Virus record (IMG/VR): IMGVR_UViG_2795385816_000003
Coordinates: 71,520 to 118,894 of that record
Reading direction: 5' to 3' (one strand)
DNA length: 47,375 nt
Source: a virus
Lineage: Duplodnaviria > Heunggongvirae > Uroviricota > Caudoviricetes
Shown: positions 1-8,699 of the stretch, piece by piece
Layout: every line of letters starts with the position of its first letter
How positions within the stretch are numbered: the stretch's first letter is position 1
Notes under the pieces: generated by a model
Seen by the model: the letters and a program-made list of their open reading frames with translations, nothing else
Database searches by the model: none
Told to the model about the DNA's origin: nothing
Made by a program: the position numbers and the translations under genes

Positions 1-464
1 CGAACCCTAGTTGCGACTGGCCTGGGTTGACCCGACACACCCCCCGCGCTTGCCGGGGAAAAATTATTTTCTGGGCTACTGTCTCTTCTTGTCCCCAGCT
101 AGTCAACAGGTTTGTCCACACGGGCGGTGGCTGTTGATCTGCTGTTTCGGGGTTCATCCACAGTTTCGGCATCGAAAATCGGCCGCCGTGCGTGGTTCTT
201 AGATTCGGGTGTTTTTGCAGTATTTCTGCGCTTGCGGCGTGACCTGCGTTACTTACACCGATAAGATTTAGCTGCTTGGAAGGAGCCCCGGGCCGGAATG
301 CCTGGGGGTCAGGCGTCACGGCCTGGGACCCCTAATCCCTGTTTGCGGCAGGATTTGAAGGTATCAGGATTGGTCACGACTCGCCAAAAAAGTCTGCGAG
401 TCGTGGGCTGGTGCCGTCACTTCCAACGTTTGCGTATGGCGAATGACCTGCGCAAAGGAAGGAA

Positions 465-1049
465 ATGGCAATGATTGGTAACAAGATCGCTCGCGGCGCG
501 GCTGCGGGCGTGTTGGCGGTCGGGGCATTCGCGCTGACCGCGTGCGTCGGCGACAAATCCGAGGCCAGTCCGGCGGTCGCGCAGCTGGGTTCCTCTGTGA
601 AGGTCAGCGGCTCGTCGGGCTGGAGTGGTGACGGGGATTATTCCGGCACTGTCACTGTCGATCCTGGTCCCGCGTGTGCGCTCGATGATGATGGTCGGGT
701 CGTTGTGTTCCATGTTCGGGCTGGCGCTGAGAAAGGCTCGGTCCCGACTGGCAACTGGAGGTTGCAGACCGGGAATGCCGACCCTGTGTCGAATGGTCAC
801 TTCGATCTTGGCGATTTCGCTGGGCCGTTGATTGGGTCGCCGGTTGATACGGACAAGGCGTGGGGTGATATCGCGTTCCATCTGCCCCCGAAGACCGTGC
901 CGACCCGACTGCAGCTATTCGCCGGTAACGATCGGTACAGCAACCCTCCGGGGGTTGCGCTTGCCCAGTGGGCGACGCCGATGGAGGTCAAAGCATCGGT
1001 GTATTGCTCGGGGCCGCTGCAACTGGCGGTCAAGGGAGAAACGCGGTGA
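465..1049 (+). CDS. Putative lipoprotein (accessory)
   Basis: Basic N-terminus, hydrophobic stretch and lipobox LTA-C (ALTACVGD); SD AAGGAAGG upstream. Confidence 0.8.
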   Translation: MAMIGNKIARGAAAGVLAVGAFALTACVGDKSEASPAVAQLGSSVKVSGSSGWSGDGDYSGTVTVDPGPACALDDDGRVVVFHVRAGAEKGSVPTGNWRLQTGNADPVSNGHFDLGDFAGPLIGSPVDTDKAWGDIAFHLPPKTVPTRLQLFAGNDRYSNPPGVALAQWATPMEVKASVYCSGPLQLAVKGETR

Positions 1050-1242
1050 TGAACTGATCGGTTGAAGTGTCCCTCCAGTGCGGCAGCGGGGAAGTGGTCG
1101 TTCTGGAGGGACCTTTACCCATGGTGGCGGAGGCGCTTCGGGTGATGAACCCCACGGTTTTTGGTGTTTGGATCTTGATTCCCGGAAGTAGCGGCTAGCC
1201 TGACGCGGCCCCGGCAGGGCGCTGGGGTGGAGAGGGGTATTC

Positions 1243-1452
1243 GTGATGGCAGAGTCAAGTGACGACACACTGGATCCGTTACAGCAGGCGGAGCGGGAGG
1301 CGAAGTTGGCCTTGCTGCAGCGGATCACAACGTTGGCGGGGAATCCGATGGCCCCGTCGGGGTTGAAGGATCTAGCTGCAGCGTTCGCGTTGACTGTTGG
1401 TGCAAAATATGGGGAGTTGCCTGGCGGGATCGATGTGAAGGTCTCCCAGTAG
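1243..1452 (+). CDS. Small hypothetical protein (68-69 aa)
   Basis: SD AGAGGGG upstream; protein-like helical composition; followed by a hairpin. Confidence 0.65.
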   Translation: MMAESSDDTLDPLQQAEREAKLALLQRITTLAGNPMAPSGLKDLAAAFALTVGAKYGELPGGIDVKVSQ

Positions 1453-1466
1453 ACGCGATAAGCACA

Positions 1467-1506
1467 GGGGGCCGATCCTTCGGTTTGGGGGGCGGCCCCC
1501 TTCGCT
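1467..1506. terminator. GC-rich hairpin, likely terminator
   Basis: GGGGGCCG (1467-1474) / CGGCCCCC (1493-1500) followed by TTCGCTTG. Confidence 0.6.
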
Positions 1507-1514
1507 TGTGCGCG

Positions 1515-1646
1515 TTATACGACTGGGTGGTGTTCGAAGTCCTCGGCGACGGCGACTCGGACGAGCTCGGATTCGGAGCTCGTTTCGCCCGCATCGACGA
1601 GTTTCGTCGCGATCTGGCGAATGCTTTCCTGTCCGCCCGTCGATGT
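1515..1646 (-). pseudogene. Possible remnant of a ribbon-helix-helix (CopG/ParD-like) gene
   Basis: Start-less frame reads ...IRQIATKLVDAGETSSESELVRVAVAEDFEHHPVV*, similar to the LVxxGxxxSxSExxR RHH pattern; TAG stops upstream in frame. Confidence 0.25.
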
Positions 1647-1844
1647 CTAGTGTCGCAGGATCTATGTTGCTCCAAGATCGCGGAGCTGATCGAGGTCTGT
1701 GTTTGGCGTCTAGCAGGGCTGATGTAGGGCCAGTGTGGATATGGCTAACTCGTTATCAGGGGTTTTCTCGACATGGCAACCATGCGTGTGTAATGATCTG
1801 CCCTGGGGCGCGCGCTGCGTCGGCTGAAAGGGGCGGTTGCATTC

Positions 1845-2930
1845 ATGGTCATGAAGGATCGTTGGACGATGCCTGCGGGTTTGCGGCGGGCATCGGCGCT
1901 GGCGGCAATCGTCGCGCTGACTGTCGGTGGAGCGAAGATCGTCGATGACTACACCCTCCCCGGTAGTGGGTTCTCGGCGGTCGCGACGGTGGCTGCCGAG
2001 CCAACAGGCCCGCCGGGGCCGACCGGTGGAATGACCGACGGTGGGGGTTCCCAGTTTCAGCCACCGCAAATGCCCAGCTCAATGCCTGATTATCAGGGCG
2101 GCAACAATCAGCCGCCGCTGGATCAGAACTCGGGTATCAGCATCTATAATACGGGATCGCCTGGTGCGCAACAGGTTCCGGGGCAGCAGAGTGGGCAGCA
2201 GCCTCAGCAGGCCCAGCAGCCCGCTCATGGCACGCAGATGCCGGACTACCAGACCAATCCTGGTTACACCCAGGGCCCCGGTCAGCCCAACCCTAATTAC
2301 CAAGCGCCGCAGCAGCAGTCGCCTCAACAGCCGCAGCAGGGCCAGCAGCCGCAACAGCAGCCGAGTCAGCAGCAGCCCCAAAACAAGCAGGACGATACGA
2401 CGCAGCAATTGGACCAAAAGAAGCAGCAGTGCCAGCTGGCGGCCGTGCAGCTAGCTACCACGGCCGCAACGACTGCTGCGCCCGTGATTCTTGGTGGTGG
2501 GGGCCGCAGTCCCATTTGGTGGTTCGAGCCGGGGCTTGACCCAACTCCGACCCCGACGCCACCGTGCCCGCAGGGTACTGACTGCACCCAGAAGGCGCCG
2601 CCGCTGACGCCGGAACAGATTCAACAGATCCTCAACGATCCTGCTGTGAAGAACTACATCGACACGCAGATCAAGAAAGGTGTCCAGGAAGGAATCAAGG
2701 AGGAGAAGGACAAACCGCCGATTCTGGAGTCGCTGTTCGGCGGTCTCGTCGGATGTGCTTCCGGTGCCCTTGGGGGCGCAGCGCTCGGCGCTCTGGAAGG
2801 TGGGATTGGCGCCGGACCTGGAGCCATCTTGGGTTGCCTTGGTGGTCTTATTGGTGGCACCACTACCCCGATGATGACATACGGTCTTCAGCAGGCCGTT
2901 CCAACTCCAGCCCAGATGGTAGGACAATAG
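1845..2930 (+). CDS. Exported Gln/Pro-rich protein with C-terminal glycine-zipper (bacteriocin-like) segment; candidate toxin
   Basis: Long signal peptide ending ATVAA-EP; Q/P low-complexity stalk; C-terminal GGLVGCASGALGGAALGALEGGIGAGPGAILGCLGGLIGG. Confidence 0.75.
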   Translation: MVMKDRWTMPAGLRRASALAAIVALTVGGAKIVDDYTLPGSGFSAVATVAAEPTGPPGPTGGMTDGGGSQFQPPQMPSSMPDYQGGNNQPPLDQNSGISIYNTGSPGAQQVPGQQSGQQPQQAQQPAHGTQMPDYQTNPGYTQGPGQPNPNYQAPQQQSPQQPQQGQQPQQQPSQQQPQNKQDDTTQQLDQKKQQCQLAAVQLATTAATTAAPVILGGGGRSPIWWFEPGLDPTPTPTPPCPQGTDCTQKAPPLTPEQIQQILNDPAVKNYIDTQIKKGVQEGIKEEKDKPPILESLFGGLVGCASGALGGAALGALEGGIGAGPGAILGCLGGLIGGTTTPMMTYGLQQAVPTPAQMVGQ

Positions 2931-2932
2931 CG

Positions 2933-3163
2933 ATGGAAGATAAGCGAAGCTTGAAAGACGTGCTGTTTTCCTTTAAGGGCCGCATTATTGCTGCGGCGTT
3001 GGTGCTCGCATGGTCGCTGGTGTACGTGTGGGCACTCGTCTATTACCAAAATCCGATTTTCTGGGGATTCTTATTGCCCTTCGGTCTCGGCGCATGGGGT
3101 ATCTGGGACGCAGTAAAACGCAAGCGGGCGGGAGAGTTTGACAGTGGATCAAAGACCAACTAG
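2933..3163 (+). CDS. 76-aa two-TM membrane protein; candidate immunity protein
   Basis: ATG 2 nt after upstream stop; MEDKRSLKDVLFSFKGRIIAAALVLAWSLVYVWALV...FWGFLLPFGLGAWGIWD; visibly AT-richer DNA. Confidence 0.75.
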   Translation: MEDKRSLKDVLFSFKGRIIAAALVLAWSLVYVWALVYYQNPIFWGFLLPFGLGAWGIWDAVKRKRAGEFDSGSKTN

Positions 3164-3731
3164 TGCTGTTGGAGTAGCGGCAATCGTTGTCGCTGCTATT
3201 GCTGGCTGTTCCGCGCAAGAAGCCAAGCCTGCGGCGGGCACATCGACCGACACCGCTATTTCTGCGCCGGGAGCTGATTTCGACCAAATTCCTGGGCAAT
3301 TTCCTCAACAGGCTTCGGGGATACCTGGGGCATCTATCGCACCTGTTGGCGCATGCGTCAGTTTTGAAGGGCCCAAGAACAACGCCACATTGAAGGTTGT
3401 CGATTGTGGTTCACCAGTAAACGGGTTCAAGGTGATTCAGCGTGTCACCACACCTGATCAGTGCCCCGCAGACGTAGCCCAGAGGTTCTACATGAACCCC
3501 GATGAGGGGCAATTCACGGCCTGCCTGGATTACGCGTGGAGCGCCAATGACTGTCTGAGCATCGGCAAGGTAACCGCTGTCCGCGCCAAGTGCGATGACA
3601 CGTCGAAGCCGAACCGCGAAAAGCCGTTGAAGGTCATCTTGAACACCACCACGAATGCGGGGTGCGGTCCTGCGGGCGGCTTCCCGCATGCGGTGCGCAA
3701 GTTCACCGTTTGCACCGAGACGCAGAAGTAG
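3138..3731 (+). CDS. LppU-like lipoprotein
   Basis: Lipobox IAG-C; Cys-paired domain (VGACV...VVDC...QC...TACLDYAW...DCL) typical of the mycobacterial LppU/SCO3897 family. Confidence 0.75.
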   Translation: MTVDQRPTSAVGVAAIVVAAIAGCSAQEAKPAAGTSTDTAISAPGADFDQIPGQFPQQASGIPGASIAPVGACVSFEGPKNNATLKVVDCGSPVNGFKVIQRVTTPDQCPADVAQRFYMNPDEGQFTACLDYAWSANDCLSIGKVTAVRAKCDDTSKPNREKPLKVILNTTTNAGCGPAGGFPHAVRKFTVCTETQK

Positions 3732-3765
3732 AGTTCGGTACGTGGCCTCTAGGAGGGCCGGTGAC

Positions 3766-4908
3766 TCAATTGCCGCTGCTGGCGGGGGATTCATTCTGCT
3801 CGCCCTGTGGTTTTTGCTTTGCGAACGTCGCTTGGTGCTGCTTTAGCAACTGCAAGGCTCGCTCGTGGCTCTCGCGGTCACGTTGCCCGTCGCGATAATC
3901 AACCTTGCCTTGCTCGCGATTGCGGACAAGTTCGATGTAGCCGTGGATAGCGTGTTCCAGCCGATACCAAGGTTCGGGCGGTTGAGATAGGTCGCTTTCA
4001 CGTCGCCGGGGGATCTGTACCCACGTCAGATTCCACATTAGTTCGATCATGGGAGCGTTTTCGCGGACCAGTTTCTTGTCCTTCTCGTCCTGCACGAAAT
4101 TCTCAAACGGCCACTGATGCATCCCCCAGAAATCGCGCGGCACGTCGACTTCAAAGCCCATCGCTCGAACCATGTTGCTAGGCAACGCTGATACAAGGCC
4201 CTGCACTCGCATTTTGTTCTGGCTGGTGTCGTTGGTCTTGTATTCGCCCCATGCGGCGGCTAGGTCGATCAGAATCTTGCGCATCTCAGCGCACCACGCT
4301 CTGTCCATGGCTGCTTCGGCATCGCGTTCGACATCGCGCCGTTTGACCATCTCGTCAAACGTCTTATTGGGGATATCGTCGAGTACGTCTTTGAAATTCT
4401 TGCGTTCCGTTTCACCGGCGGGCAGCCAATCCAGTTCGACTGCGTTGCTACTACTTCCGTAGGTGAAGTGGGCGTGGAACGCGATGGCATGGCCGCGTTC
4501 TACGGTCGGCCCGTCCTCGCCCTCGTGCTGCTCGAATCTGAGCATCGTGTGCGGGTCGACGTTGATGAATCGGACGTCGTGGGCTGCCAACGTGCCGGTG
4601 TTGCGTAGCACGTAGCGGTCCCCTTCGGGATGCACGGTGATCGTCCACCCGTACTTCGCGCGTTCCTCGTTGGCCTGCGCTCGCGCCTCGGCTGAATGCG
4701 CGAGCGTAGATGCCTTCGCTGAATTGTGCGCTGATCTGGACGCTTGGAACTGCGCAAAGCACGCAACTCCGAGCGCGCCGACTGCGACGAGTGTCGCGCC
4801 GGACGAGTGGTAGTGCTTCCACAACCAGATGTCGAACGCGCCGACAACGACAATGATGACCAGCGCCACCGTCACGGATAGTTTCACCGGCCACCCCTTA
4901 CGTTTCAT
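3766..4908 (-). CDS. Membrane-anchored protein of unknown function (2 N-terminal TM segments plus soluble domain)
   Basis: 380-aa ORF with two hydrophobic segments and a coiled-coil-like linker; alternative start GTG at 4887 with AAGGGG upstream. Confidence 0.8.
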   Translation of the reverse strand: MKRKGWPVKLSVTVALVIIVVVGAFDIWLWKHYHSSGATLVAVGALGVACFAQFQASRSAHNSAKASTLAHSAEARAQANEERAKYGWTITVHPEGDRYVLRNTGTLAAHDVRFINVDPHTMLRFEQHEGEDGPTVERGHAIAFHAHFTYGSSSNAVELDWLPAGETERKNFKDVLDDIPNKTFDEMVKRRDVERDAEAAMDRAWCAEMRKILIDLAAAWGEYKTNDTSQNKMRVQGLVSALPSNMVRAMGFEVDVPRDFWGMHQWPFENFVQDEKDKKLVRENAPMIELMWNLTWVQIPRRRESDLSQPPEPWYRLEHAIHGYIELVRNREQGKVDYRDGQRDRESHERALQLLKQHQATFAKQKPQGEQNESPASSGN

Positions 4909-4910
4909 AT

Positions 4911-4938
4911 CTGGGCTTCGGTGCGCACCGAAGCCCAG
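4911..4938. repeat. Perfect 28-bp palindrome between divergent genes
   Basis: CTGGGCTTCGGTGC|GCACCGAAGCCCAG. Confidence 0.9.
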
Positions 4939-4972: not shown

Positions 4973-6250
4973 GTGCGGAATCGCTGGGTTCACGTTTCAT
5001 CACCCCCTGCCAGACTTCCGCGCGTGCCCGAATACACGCAGCTTGCCGTCGATGATCTGCACACCTTCACAGGCAACCCGCGCCGCGGTGATGTCAGCGC
5101 AATCGCCGTTTCGTTGACCAAGCACGGCCAGTACCGGCCCATCGTGGTGAATCGGGGCAGCCAGACTGGCCGCCGCAACGAGGTGCTGGCCGGGAACCAC
5201 ACGTTGATGGCTGCGCGGTCGCTCGGCTGGACCACGATTGATGTCGGGATCGTGGATGTTGATGAGGACGCCGCGCGCTCGATCGTGGCGGCCGATAACC
5301 GGCTGGCCGACCTGGGCGAGTACGACACCTCCGACCTCTATCAGCTGTTGTCGTCGATCGAGGACTTGGGCGGAACCGGTTACGGGCTCGAGGATTTGTT
5401 GGCGATGGAGCGTGATCTGTTCCCGCCGGAGCCGCTGACTGACCCGGATGATGTTCCGCCGGCACCGGAGGTACCGGTGTCGCGGGCGGGTCAGTTGTGG
5501 TCGTTGGGGGAGCATCGGCTGCTGGTCGGGTCGGCGACCGATCTGGCGGGTGTGCGGGAGCTGTGTGGTGACGTGCAGCCGGATTGTGTGTGGACCGATC
5601 CGCCCTATGGCGTCGACTATGTGGGGAAGACGAAGGCGGCGTTGCGGATCCAAAACGACGTGACTGGTGGGCTTTTCGAGCTGCTGAAGGCGGCGTTCGA
5701 TGTGGTGGCCGCGGTGGCCCGGCCGGGCGCCCCGGTGTACGTGGCGCACGCGGACACCGAACGCACAACGTTCGAGTCCGCGATGGAAAGCGCCGGGCTG
5801 CAAGTGCGGCAGAACCTGGTGTGGGTGAAGAACATGATGGCCCTTGGCCGTTCGGACTACCAGTACCGGCACGAGCCCATCCTGTACGGGTTCGCCCCGG
5901 GCGGCGAGGGCCGGCTGGGGCGCGGCGGCGAGCGCTGGTTCGGCGACAACAAGTCCACCACGGTGTTTGAGGTGGACAAGCCTGCCTGCAACGCCGAACA
6001 CCCGACGATGAAGCCCGTGGCGTTGATCGAGGCGATGCTGGCCAACAGCCTGCGACCGGGCGGCGTGGTGCTGGACCCGTTCTCCGGCTCGGGGTCCACG
6101 TTGATCGCAGCGCATGGCCGCCAGTCGCGGTGCTTCGGTGTGGAATTGGATCCGCGGTATGCCGATGTGATTCTGCGTCGGTTCGAGGAGCACACGGGCA
6201 TCGTGCCGGAGCTCGACGGCGAGCCTGTGTCGTTCGCGGGCGCAGCCTGA
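4973..6250 (+). CDS. ParB-like domain fused to an N4/N6 DNA methyltransferase (true start possibly GTG 5024)
   Basis: GNPR...RPIVVN...VLAGNH ParB/Srx-like N-terminus; TDPPY, HPTMKP and DPFSGSGST methylase motifs. Confidence 0.9.
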   Translation: MRNRWVHVSSPPARLPRVPEYTQLAVDDLHTFTGNPRRGDVSAIAVSLTKHGQYRPIVVNRGSQTGRRNEVLAGNHTLMAARSLGWTTIDVGIVDVDEDAARSIVAADNRLADLGEYDTSDLYQLLSSIEDLGGTGYGLEDLLAMERDLFPPEPLTDPDDVPPAPEVPVSRAGQLWSLGEHRLLVGSATDLAGVRELCGDVQPDCVWTDPPYGVDYVGKTKAALRIQNDVTGGLFELLKAAFDVVAAVARPGAPVYVAHADTERTTFESAMESAGLQVRQNLVWVKNMMALGRSDYQYRHEPILYGFAPGGEGRLGRGGERWFGDNKSTTVFEVDKPACNAEHPTMKPVALIEAMLANSLRPGGVVLDPFSGSGSTLIAAHGRQSRCFGVELDPRYADVILRRFEEHTGIVPELDGEPVSFAGAA

Positions 6251-6254
6251 CCTC

Positions 6255-7772
6255 ATGTCCGCGGTGTTGAGTCTGGCGGCTGCCCGGTATGTGCGGGTGG
6301 CACGCGCCCGTCGACGGCCGGGGAGCCCCGCTGAGTTGGCGCGCCGTCTCGACACGAAGTTCCGTGTGACACCGACGATCCGGCTGCTGTCGGACCTCGC
6401 GGTGCGATCGGTCAGGGAGCCGGATCAGCGAGATGTTGTCAGCACTCCGCCGCGGACGGGAAAGTCGCAGTCGCTGGCGATCTGGACGCCCGCCTGGGCG
6501 TTGGGCGAAAACCCGGATCTGAAGATTGTGATCGTGTCGTACTCGGATGAGTTGGCGCAGACGCATTCTCGTGAGATCCGCAAGATCATCAACGAGCACG
6601 CCGAGTTCCTGGGATACCGGCTGGCGCGCGATAAGACGTCAGTGGGTCAGTGGCGGGTGGAGGGCCACGAGGGCGGCGTGCTGGCCACCGGTATCAACTC
6701 GGGTGTGACGGGTTTCGGCGCCGACCTGATGATCATCGACGACCCGGTTAAGGATGCGGCGGAAGCCGACTCGAAGGCGCATCGGCGGCGCGTGCTCAAC
6801 GAGTACCAATCGACGTTGTCGACGCGTGTGCATCCGGGCGGCTCCGTCGTGGTGGTGATGACGCGCTGGCATGAGGAAGACTTGGCCGGGGCGCTGATTA
6901 AGCAGGAGCCGGACCGGTGGCGGCGCACCAACATCCCCGCCGTCTCGGACCCGAAGATCCCCGACGCGCTCTGTCGGCCTGCTGGAGTGGCGATGGTCTC
7001 CGCGTTGGGATTCACGGCTGAGCATTTTGTGGCGACACGGCGCACCGTGGGGGAGCGGGTGTGGTTTGCACTGTATTGCGGCGAGCCCACGGCGCCAGCC
7101 GGCGGGCTGGTCAAGCAGAAGTGGTTGGACGATTGGCGGCTCCTACTCGCACCGTCGCGGCCGGTGTTCACCGTGGTGGCGGTAGACCCATCCGATAGCG
7201 GGTCGGGCGACTCGTGCGGTTTGATCGCGACATCGCTCACTGGACAGGGCGTGGTGGCGTTGATCGCGGACAAGTCCAAGCCGATGACATCGGACGAGTG
7301 GGCGCGTGAGTCTGTGCAGTTGGCGATTGACGTGGGGGCCAGCGAGATTGCGGTGGAAGGGTTCGCGGCCCGCGAGACCTACACGCGGGTGGTCAAGGAA
7401 GCGATCACCCGTGCCGAGGAGAACGGCGCACTGAACCGGCCGATCACGGTGTCGTCGTGGCCGCCGAAGGGCCGACCGCGCGTGGGCGATGCGGTGGCGC
7501 GCTCGGCCGCGCTGTTGCAGGCATTGGAGGTGGGCACGTGCCGGTTGGCGGGCCATTTTCCCGAGTTCGAGGCCAAGTCCGTGGCCTGGCAGGCAGGCCA
7601 ACACCAGCCGGACAACTTGGCGGCGTTAGTGATTGGACACGACGTCTGCGTGCATTCGGCGGGGCTGGAGTGGGACATCGCCGCGCCGCTGACGACTGTG
7701 GGCGGGCAGGGGATGCCTTCCGGCGCCGCGGTGACCGACTTGGAGGATTGGATCTCCCGCAAGATCAGCTGA
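6255..7772 (+). CDS. terL: Terminase large subunit
   Basis: Walker A PPRTGKS, Walker B MIIDDP, MTRWHEED motif, nuclease VAVDPS. Confidence 0.92.
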   Translation: MSAVLSLAAARYVRVARARRRPGSPAELARRLDTKFRVTPTIRLLSDLAVRSVREPDQRDVVSTPPRTGKSQSLAIWTPAWALGENPDLKIVIVSYSDELAQTHSREIRKIINEHAEFLGYRLARDKTSVGQWRVEGHEGGVLATGINSGVTGFGADLMIIDDPVKDAAEADSKAHRRRVLNEYQSTLSTRVHPGGSVVVVMTRWHEEDLAGALIKQEPDRWRRTNIPAVSDPKIPDALCRPAGVAMVSALGFTAEHFVATRRTVGERVWFALYCGEPTAPAGGLVKQKWLDDWRLLLAPSRPVFTVVAVDPSDSGSGDSCGLIATSLTGQGVVALIADKSKPMTSDEWARESVQLAIDVGASEIAVEGFAARETYTRVVKEAITRAEENGALNRPITVSSWPPKGRPRVGDAVARSAALLQALEVGTCRLAGHFPEFEAKSVAWQAGQHQPDNLAALVIGHDVCVHSAGLEWDIAAPLTTVGGQGMPSGAAVTDLEDWISRKIS

Positions 7773-7960
7773 GCGGTCGCTACGCCGATCCTTGGACAGT
7801 CAACACGCCGGTGAGCGCCAAGGCGGTAATTGGGTCCAACCGGGGGGTAGCGTCCTAAATGGCAATTGCTACGTCATGGCCCTCTTCATCGCTGGAGGGG
7901 CGGCGCGCTCGCTGAATCTCAGTGAATCGTGTCTTCCGCCCAGTGATGAAGGGAGTGTTC

Positions 7961-8071
7961 ATGTCGCGGCGAAAACAACGAAAAGCCGTAGAAGATTGGA
8001 TCAGGATTCTGATCTTCTTGCTACGGCTCATCGAGGTTATTGCTGTTGTGACCGGTAAACACTGGTACTAG
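7961..8071 (+). CDS. 36-aa hydrophobic peptide (type I toxin-like), below the ORF-track cutoff
   Basis: MSRRKQRKAVEDWIRILIFLLRLIEVIAVVTGKHWY*; SD GAAGGGAG at 7948-7955. Confidence 0.6.
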   Translation: MSRRKQRKAVEDWIRILIFLLRLIEVIAVVTGKHWY

Positions 8072-8105
8072 CCAGGGTTGAGGAACCGACTGCCATCGGT
8101 GACTC

Positions 8106-8134
8106 GGGGGCGGGGCTACTAAAGCCCGCCCTCT
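8106..8134. terminator. Hairpin downstream of the 36-aa ORF, possibly bidirectional
   Basis: GGGCGGGGCT-ACTAA-AGCCCGCCC (one bulged G). Confidence 0.55.
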
Positions 8135-8191
8135 ACCTGTCTGTTCAGCGTGCGTCATGCCGCAAAAGAGCGCTTATGGCGTGACGCGCAC

Positions 8192-8276
8192 TGTAAAGGA
8201 GGTTACACCACAGGTACACCGTGTCACATGTAAGCGCGGTTACATGTCGCAATCAATACATGTAGCGATTGGTACA
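8192..8276. promoter_or_regulatory. Array of TGTA-N8-TACA-like palindromic operator sites
   Basis: Exact at 8192, 8229 and 8261; near matches at 8213 and 8245; the last four abut at a 16-bp period. Confidence 0.65.
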
Positions 8277-8418
8277 CGGTTGTGCGCGCTGGGAGCCGTC
8301 ATCTGGCATCACCCCCGACACCTTGCGATCGGCTGGATTCGTTTGAACCACCTGCTATTCGGCTCGTGGCCGCCTTGCGGTCCGCCAAGCTTGGATTGCT
8401 TGTCACTCGTCAGCTCGT

Positions 8419-8437
8419 CACCGCGTGGGCGTACTTT
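8419..8437 (+). promoter_or_regulatory. CAC-box promoter (CACCG-N8-TACTTT), leaderless to ATG 8445
   Basis: Shared motif; 7 nt from the -10 hexamer to the start codon. Confidence 0.65.
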
Positions 8438-8444
8438 CCTGGCC

Positions 8445-8699
8445 ATGGCCTCGGAAACCATTGACCCCTGCATGGCGTTGTTACCGGATACGGCGTTGGC
8501 GTTCGCGCTCGGTGTGCGGGTGGCTAGCCCGCAGTCGGTGTCAAACGTTGGGCAGGTGTCGACGTTGACCGCCGAGCTGCAGCGCCGCGGTGTGTACGAC
8601 GACATGCTGGCAGTGCTCGATCCTGAGTTGGCGGCGCGGATCGAGTTGTTGGACAGCGCGGATCGCGGCCAACGCTGGGCCCGCACTGGGCACAGGTGA
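8445..8699 (+). CDS. Phage hypothetical protein (84 aa; 3' part of track ORF 8157-8699)
   Basis: MASETIDPCMALLPD...; start chosen from the promoter motif. Confidence 0.65.
   Translation: MASETIDPCMALLPDTALAFALGVRVASPQSVSNVGQVSTLTAELQRRGVYDDMLAVLDPELAARIELLDSADRGQRWARTGHR

Follow-up and report, generated by a model that had tools for sequence, protein, structure and literature searches.

What is encoded by three tightly coupled genes of a mycobacterial prophage whose closest counterparts carry, in GenBank, the labels 'hypothetical', 'membrane protein' and 'hypothetical'? The stretch of DNA analysed here, referred to below as the window, comprises 47,375 nucleotides (nt), positions 71,520 to 118,894 of the IMG/VR provirus record IMGVR_UViG_2795385816_000003 (118,894 bases), and the three genes (A, B and C) form a cassette on its plus strand at 1845-3731. 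A preliminary description, made from the DNA letters and their translations, had read them as an exported toxin with a glycine-zipper tip, an immunity protein and an LppU-type lipoprotein, carried by a mycobacterial prophage. The carrier was correctly recognized: the window is a Mycobacterium abscessus-complex prophage that, from nt 1739 onward, is 96.9% identical to the M. abscessus prophage prophiT49-1, the source of the labels above. ProphiT49-1 has been assigned to cluster MabL (PMC9934374), and the window has packaging genes in common with other MabL prophages. On the evidence set out below, genes A, B and C probably belong to a large family of polymorphic toxin-immunity cassettes that is independent of ESX and WXG100, the benefit of which would lie in competition by lysogens. 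Within the reach of comparative genomics, the earlier interpretation finds support.

A constant 5' half and a variable 3' block

A search with residues 1-200 of the gene A product retrieves at least 236 protein clusters of 219-580 amino acids (aa), and an exhaustive profile search with this N-terminal module (N-module) among 1.84 billion representatives found 195. Those of the 236 clusters with a named source come from Mycobacteroides (abscessus, chelonae, franklinii, salmoniphilum and saopaulense) or from unclassified 'Mycobacterium sp.' isolates. A total of 112 loci were collected by pattern searches and tblastn, 32 of them from species-representative genomes and the others, 80 of 112 hits, from viral contigs. 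All 32 species-representative loci are from the Mycobacteroides group, with up to five per genome. Many family members reside on prophages of the M. abscessus-chelonae group, and many cassettes are also chromosomal.

The preliminary description had predicted that homologues would end in variable C-termini, each followed by a different small gene. Both predictions were borne out. In a non-redundant sample of 79 unique cassettes, the C-terminal tips fall into 33 classes and the first downstream genes into 30, so that the proteins are far from invariant along their length and each tip class has its own downstream family. Agreement between the two classifications is close (adjusted Rand index 0.88, adjusted mutual information 0.90), with 160 of 163 same-tip pairs sharing the downstream family. 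Several paralogue C-termini exceed Pfam cut-offs, namely Ntox33 (98.5 bits against a cut-off of 28.4), Amidase_2, DUF6973, DUF2599 and a reprolysin-type metzincin, while a prokaryotic phospholipase A2 (29.0 against 29.4) and a GH19 domain (25.3 against 25.5) fall just under them. One member is annotated as a metallopeptidase and is followed by a metalloproteinase inhibitor. Many C-termini, including that of the window, have no Pfam family match. A shared N-terminal region with unrelated C-termini, recognized toxin domains and a varying downstream gene, all three of which are criteria of polymorphic toxin systems (Zhang et al., 2012), are thus found in this family.

The same division is visible in the DNA. 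The stretch that resembles cassettes of all classes begins at 1605-1665, about 180-240 nt before the ATG of gene A, and ends at 2356-2436, which is the end of the module rich in Gln and Pro (the Gln/Pro module). Similarity resumes at 3273-3731, the 3' two-thirds of the lipoprotein gene, in membrane-tip cassettes only. The recombination boundary is the start of a junction module (gene A residues 196-247). N-module identity averages 87% within a toxin class and 76% between classes, and its median between different classes is 77.5%. Judged from these alignments, the constant-5', variable-3' layout is that of a classic polymorphic toxin locus.

The three gene products and their expression

The signal peptide, Gln/Pro stalk, linker, Cys-bracketed tip, two-helix membrane protein gene and overlapping LppU-like gene of the preliminary description are all present at the positions given in Table 1. 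The tip and the small gene had also been described as richer in AT than the N-terminal half, and the GC fraction is indeed 0.525-0.585 over 2601-3200 against 0.62-0.67 over 1801-2600, although part of this contrast comes from the CAG/CCG-rich Gln/Pro codons that raise the GC content of the N-terminal part of gene A. A Shine-Dalgarno sequence (GAAAGGGG) lies 11 nt upstream of the gene A start. The ATG of gene B follows 2 nt past the stop codon of gene A, with AGGA 8 nt upstream, and the GTG of gene C is preceded by GGGAGAG and gives an overlap of 20 nt with gene B (26 nt if TTG 3138 is used). Among phage protein families, phrog_35557 is matched by gene A over its full length and phrog_30921 by its N-terminal part alone.

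Table 1. Features of the cassette and its surroundings, in window coordinates.
Feature	Position	Strand	Description
Conserved leader	1605-1844	+	Joins the constant 5' half; contains a promoter-like site and the Shine-Dalgarno sequence
Sigma-70-like promoter candidate	1768-1797	+	TCGACA, 18 nt, TG-extended AATGAT; from a consensus scan
Gene A	1845-2930	+	361 aa; open reading frame and translation; corresponds to prophiT49-1 gp42 (99.3% amino-acid identity)
Gene A residues 1-31	1845-1937	+	Basic n-region (LRR), 15-residue hydrophobic core, GGA/K cleavage-like site
Gene A residues 32-195	1938-2429	+	Conserved Gln/Pro module with three PDYQ motifs; putative constant trafficking or stalk module
Gene A residues 196-247	2430-2585	+	Junction: Cys196, hydrophobic stretch, GGGGRSPIWW, TP repeat, Cys241/Cys247 (alignment A2)
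Gene A residues 248-295	2586-2729	+	Charged, probably helical segment before the tip; helices in the AlphaFold2 (AF2) model at pLDDT ~40, indicative only
Gene A residues 296-340	2730-2864	+	Glycine-zipper hydrophobic hairpin with Cys304/Cys331 bracket; putative membrane-inserting warhead
Gene B	2933-3163	+	76 aa; corresponds to prophiT49-1 gp43
Gene C	3144-3731	+	GTG start 3144 (alternative TTG 3138); LppU/SCO3897-family lipoprotein
Convergent membrane protein	3766-4908	-	380 aa; downstream of the cassette
ParB-methylase fusion	4973-6250		Downstream of the cassette
Large terminase	6255-7772		Downstream of the cassette

The N-terminus of gene A looks like a Sec-type signal peptide, a signal anchor being less likely. 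Among the 86 homologues where the pattern located a hydrophobic core, 67 have one of 15 residues. Export by the twin-arginine translocation (Tat) pathway was considered and appears less likely, as the twin arginine is not invariant in alignment A1 and the many Cys residues of the exported part suit Sec better. Of 91 proteins, 82 have no Cys in residues 1-150, and the median number of Cys past residue 150 is five, a distribution that fits oxidative folding outside the cytoplasm. The sequence also fits the claim that the system is independent of ESX. Neither gene A nor its neighbours matches WXG100 in Pfam, PHROG or NCBIfam, no W-x-G or YxxxD/E motif was seen in the gene A translation, and no WXG100 gene is present among the annotated neighbours in prophiT49-1.

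The Gln/Pro module that follows is not mere low complexity, since 26 sequences aligned over it (A1) show 60% mean column identity and many invariant positions. The module also occurs internally (approximately residues 180-500) in Mycobacteroides toxins of about 665-1166 aa (e.g. P0166, P0170 and P0183, each of about 1,100 aa), directly after a long hydrophobic and seemingly multi-transmembrane (multi-TM) N-terminal domain. The C-termini of these long toxins are GH-E nuclease, glutamine deamidase or CdiA-type RNase A domains. Such internal reuse after a multi-TM domain suggests that toxins of both architectures share the module as an extracytoplasmic carrier or stalk. A more far-reaching reading makes the PDYQ module itself the envelope-crossing device, a disordered stalk whose short motifs would bind envelope components, perhaps the cassette lipoprotein, in the manner of MafA-dependent MafB export or of the disordered translocation domains of colicins. 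Its position after a multi-TM anchor in the long toxins does fit a role outside the cytoplasmic membrane, but we consider such a device rather doubtful. We are equally hesitant about the corollary that Sec-exported toxins are carried across the mycomembrane of the producer, or into the target, by a secretion or import route new to mycobacteria.

Beyond the module, GGGGR and TPTPTP are found at residues 217-239, and GGGGRSPIWW is invariant in alignment A2. Junctions of this type were seen in membrane-tip cassettes alone, of which 17 of 26 have one. The window tip belongs to a membrane-tip superclass of at least eight subtypes, in which a charged or coiled segment is followed by a hydrophobic, Gly-rich hairpin that in most subtypes is flanked by two Cys. 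Each subtype is then followed by its own small protein, most of them seemingly multi-TM, and related tips have coiled-coil-like segments at the position equivalent to residues 248-295. The string singled out in the preliminary description as the tip lies at residues 303-331, between Cys304 and Cys331. Within residues 296-340 there are 17 Gly and 11 GxxxG motifs, and as this count is reached by just 0.08% of composition-preserving shuffles, the glycine phasing is above chance. The hydropathy of the tip is moderate. Matches to other Pfam models of the Gly-zipper_OmpA/YMGG/Omp set (12.8 against 28.9 and 7.7 against 25 bits) and to Bacteriocin_IIc (11.4 against 27.1 bits) are below cut-off, as is a match to TraT, and sister tips give SseC-like matches. 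A profile search of the PDB with the tip returned nothing under E 0.2, and Atlas feature scores of 0.76-0.78 are leads only.

Gene B is predicted to encode two TM helices, one strongly hydrophobic and the second rich in aromatic residues, with basic residues at both termini (alignment A4), which suggests a hairpin with both N- and C-termini inside the cell. Its family (D1) is present in all seven unique cassettes with the tip class of the window, and among 5.8 billion proteins its homologues form only four clusters. Gene B is accordingly placed here as the putative cognate immunity protein for the gene A tip. In one membrane-tip subtype (L086-L092 and L017), a multi-TM, immunity-like domain is fused to an LppU domain in a single protein of 262-272 aa, an arrangement by which both activities are brought to one place, the outer face of the cytoplasmic membrane.

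Gene C has a lipobox (IAGC) at residues 19-22 of the product that starts at GTG 3144. The lipobox Cys is invariant in alignment A3, in which eight Cys are invariant, and the product has an IPGQFP motif. The product passes the NCBIfam LppU/SCO3897 domain model NF049863 (43.9 bits, cut-off 25) and misses the equivalog model lipo_LppU, NF049864 (109 bits, cut-off 135). Its Atlas feature score to LppU clusters is 0.92. A confident AF2 model of an all-beta domain (pLDDT 85.6) found no convincing match in Foldseek searches of the PDB (best E 0.2) and AFDB Swiss-Prot (best E 0.19) or in a VIA-align comparison with 48,161 chains (best Z 3.7), a lack of structural matches that is no proof of a new fold.

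The preliminary description had expected LppU to be constant across the family. This holds in part, in that an open reading frame of the LppU family follows the toxin in 57 of the 76 unique cassettes with enough downstream sequence. The family is missing from the other 19, and its sequence diverges with the toxin, with a mean identity of 76% among cassettes of one toxin class and 47% across classes. LppU thus tracks the toxin class and is part of the swapped 3' block rather than of the constant part. The idea of LppU as a universal exporter was downgraded, as its lack in a quarter of the cassettes argues against an obligatory role in export. In representatives of the LppU-less metzincin and DUF6973 classes, a lipoprotein of another family is found instead (L003:5194-5733 and L022:7005-7577); it is annotated as a metalloproteinase inhibitor beside metzincin tips and is the third gene beside DUF6973 tips. 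The LppU domain was also found in 48 of 81 sampled genomes of other Mycobacteriaceae (a tally that includes one unpublished genome, G072, on whose own data none of the claims depends). At 30 sampled loci of this kind, the upstream open reading frame was recognizable in four and was a housekeeping gene (rpsO, ribF or ksgA-like), not a toxin gene. These neighbours, together with the missed equivalog cut-off, point to the cassette LppU as a recruited paralogue.

In a 13-sequence alignment (A6), the mean column identity of the leader upstream of gene A (240 nt) is 82%, and long blocks of it do not vary. The leader is more conserved than would be expected for intergenic DNA, across unrelated toxin classes and different species, and it may carry operator sites for some regulator. 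No credible match to the leader was found in Rfam, and no RNA structure is claimed for it, the RNAalifold covariation term being -1.23 kcal/mol with few compensatory pairs. The consensus scan for promoters returned one site where 1.2 are expected by chance and is by itself no evidence; the site falls in an invariant block of alignment A6.

In the public RNA sequencing (RNA-seq) run X1, a 6,246-nt contig (k-mer depth 130) spans window positions 1-4924 with three differences. The late-gene region at 8.7-20 kb is touched by short contigs only, at a depth of approximately 3. This pattern is unlike uniform DNA carry-over and fits lysogenic expression. A second contig of high depth (112.6) in the same run lies over 7329-8690, between the terminase and the portal. 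Runs X2, X7 and X9 gave short or divergent parts of the window and support no conclusion, and neither do stretches left uncovered.

Proposed mechanism and competing explanations

If the cassette is a toxin-immunity system, the general secretory pathway would export the gene A product, whose C-terminal part with its Cys residues would be oxidized outside the cytoplasm. In cells without immunity, the Cys304-Cys331 glycine-zipper hairpin would then enter the cytoplasmic membrane from its outer face and dissipate the membrane potential, as the glycine-zipper toxins EsxX and TelE do. The gene B protein, with both ends apparently cytoplasmic, would neutralize the tip inside the membranes of the producing cell and of related lysogens. 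LppU would be an accessory that co-evolves with the toxin class; it may serve in toxin maturation, in envelope crossing (as MafA does for MafB) or as a second layer of protection, and this step is the least certain. The likely benefit would be that lysogens compete against non-lysogenic relatives. All of this, from toxicity and immunity to the route of export and what LppU does, is inferred here from comparisons of sequence.

Several points weigh against this mechanism. The passage of a Sec substrate across the mycomembrane to another cell is unexplained, and the N-terminus of gene A may, besides Sec export, serve Tat export or act as a signal anchor. LppU is missing from 19 of the 76 cassettes even though these share the N-module. 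The tip falls below the Pfam thresholds of Gly-zipper_OmpA (16.7 against 27 bits) and DUF6861 (20 against 28 bits). Its AF2 model, built on a nine-sequence alignment with two helices about a GAGPG turn, is unusable (pLDDT 39.7). With no Pfam threshold reached and an unreliable model, the term 'glycine zipper' is a statement at the level of motifs. The covariation of adjacent genes would also be expected from a co-inherited swapped block, so that gene B is established as part of the variable module and not as a neutralizer of gene A. Lastly, the RNA signal consists of assembled contigs of one run, with no strand and no per-gene level.

Competing explanations have to be set beside these points. 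The exported tips could instead act on the membranes of macrophages or amoebae, as a host-directed virulence module whose downstream genes merely protect the producer. The phospholipase A2 and metzincin tips of the family could indeed act on eukaryotic membranes or matrix, the cassette is seemingly transcribed in one RNA-seq library, and the work on ESX-type prophage toxins leaves pathogenicity, competition or phage defence open (PMC10654092). Such a role is nevertheless unlikely in view of the tips directed at bacterial structures, an N-acetylmuramoyl-L-alanine amidase and a GH19-like domain of the lysozyme/chitinase family, and of the interbacterial-type Ntox33. Strictly cognate, hyper-diverse immunity genes are, moreover, a mark of conflict between bacteria, and the family is common in environmental Mycobacteroides isolates too, as well as being present in one metagenome-assembled genome.

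The cassette might also serve the phage, either by weakening the envelope as an aid to lysis or by superinfection exclusion or abortive infection, with gene B restraining gene A until a second phage arrives. More than 30 warheads on a constant N-terminus, Ntox33 among them, are not known for lysis or exclusion genes, and many of the cassettes sit in chromosomes, several of them to a genome. Open reading frames of the size of lysin genes lie about 35 kb from the cassette, and the RNA contig suggests expression while the late genes are barely represented. These observations make a phage-serving role quite improbable, despite the position of the cassette in a prophage next to packaging genes and the resemblance of small two-TM proteins with charged ends, and of lipoproteins, to holin and spanin parts; a spanin/holin reading was rejected as the main explanation. 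A phage-derived precedent does exist in Listeria, where the Mtz-Tim pair of a metzincin and a TIMP-like lipoprotein sensitizes cells to lysins (PMC8235301), and metzincin-class members of the present family pair with a lipoprotein annotated as an inhibitor.

That gene A is an ordinary Pro/Gln-rich envelope protein anchored by its C-terminal hairpin, with B and C as unrelated envelope proteins, is very improbable: gene A alone has no enzymatic domain or above-threshold family match, its tip is moderately hydrophobic and the tip model is uninformative, but the N-module is fused to recognized toxin domains in paralogues, a fixed boundary marks the exchange, as one block, of the tip, gene B and the 5' part of gene C, and gene B is essentially confined to the tip class of the window.

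Relation to known systems and neighbouring genes

M. abscessus prophages are known to carry phage-encoded ESX-secreted polymorphic toxin, immunity and WXG100 cassettes, termed PEST (PMC8092301, PMC10654092, PMC9934374). For type VII secretion, the toxins of these cassettes are reported to have WXG100-type domains at the N-terminus and to be accompanied by a WXG100 partner gene. The present family resembles PEST in its hosts and prophages, its constant N-terminal export part, variable C-terminal toxin and cognate downstream immunity gene, and in lysogenic expression and exchange between prophage clusters. It differs in that gene A has a signal-peptide-like N-terminus, a PDYQ module and a lipoprotein partner, and gene A is not a PEST member.

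In Neisseria, the Maf system consists of the toxin MafB, the immunity protein MafI and the lipoprotein MafA (PMC4287609, PMC7738311). MafB is exported by Sec, and MafA is required for its transit across the outer membrane, sometimes in a cognate-specific manner (PMC7738311). A diderm host, a Sec signal, a conserved N-terminal domain, polymorphic C-termini, a cognate immunity gene and a locus-encoded lipoprotein are common to both. In the Mycobacteroides cassettes, however, the lipoprotein comes last in the gene order and is lacking in a quarter of them, and the outer barrier is a mycomembrane. Gene A has no MafB/DUF1020 match (another tip subtype reaches E 0.14) and LppU is not MafA, so that the analogy is one of mechanism only.

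The nearest likeness to the tip is offered by two LXG toxins that use type VIIb secretion (T7SSb), EsxX of Staphylococcus aureus, with ExiCD/ExiAB (PMC12744356), and TelE of Streptococcus gallolyticus, with TipE (PMC10434224). Their glycine-zipper C-termini depolarize or permeabilize membranes (PMC12744356, PMC10434224), and the polytopic membrane proteins ExiCD guard against extracellular EsxX (PMC12744356). As proposed here, a polymorphic scaffold ends in a membrane-damaging glycine-zipper segment, and small polytopic membrane proteins (ExiCD) give protection. Export by LXG/T7SSb in place of a signal peptide sets them apart, and neither the tip nor the immunity protein has detectable homology. 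Further distinguishing marks of the Mycobacteroides family are the pair of Cys that brackets the zipper and the partner lipoprotein.

Polymorphic toxin systems with an S8 peptidase (S8-PTS) occur in Gram-positive bacteria and comprise a signal peptide, a BetaH domain, a toxin, an immunity gene and the peptidase (PMC9424270). They share with the present family a Sec signal, a lineage-specific N-terminal domain, many toxin C-termini that include Ntox33 and a third conserved accessory gene. A disordered-looking Gln/Pro module appears to stand in place of BetaH, the accessory is a lipoprotein and not a subtilase, the host is a mycolate diderm, and no S8 peptidase was found among the neighbours scanned or annotated. 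Class II bacteriocins and CdzC/D of Caulobacter are likewise Gly-rich, membrane-active peptides with small membrane immunity proteins. They are short and carry double-glycine leaders or leave the cell by type I secretion, whereas the zipper described here is the tip of a modular protein of 361 aa and no annotated neighbour is a transporter. Since the comparisons with PEST, Maf, S8-PTS and the glycine-zipper Pfam families all failed to establish membership, the cassette is not assigned to any of them; in concept it is a polymorphic toxin system, and its closest parallels are Neisseria Maf and S8-PTS.

No paper in the literature searched describes a toxin family with a PDYQ module or ties LppU to toxins, in agreement with the earlier statement that no description was known, and the literature on M. 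abscessus prophages describes only ESX-dependent PEST cassettes, with no mention of a second family. M. abscessus prophages have thus been credited so far with PEST weaponry alone, and the PDYQ-module family would be a second arsenal of comparable diversity. If functional, it has a bearing on how strains of a drug-resistant pathogen compete and tell kin from non-kin, on the fitness effects of prophages and on the manner in which non-ESX proteins leave a mycolate diderm. It would further provide a catalogue of candidate envelope-acting effectors with cognate inhibitors. It would also suggest a first functional context for one paralogue of LppU/SCO3897, for which no structural relative or functional study was found.

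Two neighbouring genes deserve mention. A double helix-turn-helix protein of approximately 268 aa (F1; HTH_28 and HTH_23, resembling a transposase N-terminus) is encoded after the lipoprotein gene in 37 of the 76 unique cassettes (e.g. L042:7832-8638 and L004:5871-6674) and may regulate or mobilize the cassette. In the window, F1 was not found directly downstream of gene C, where the convergent membrane protein gene occupies its place, and it is therefore not part of this locus. On the other side of the cassette, a plus-strand open reading frame at 465-1049 encodes a protein of 194 aa with a lipoprotein-type signal (LTAC); this frame is not part of the conserved block but falls within the same RNA contig as the cassette.

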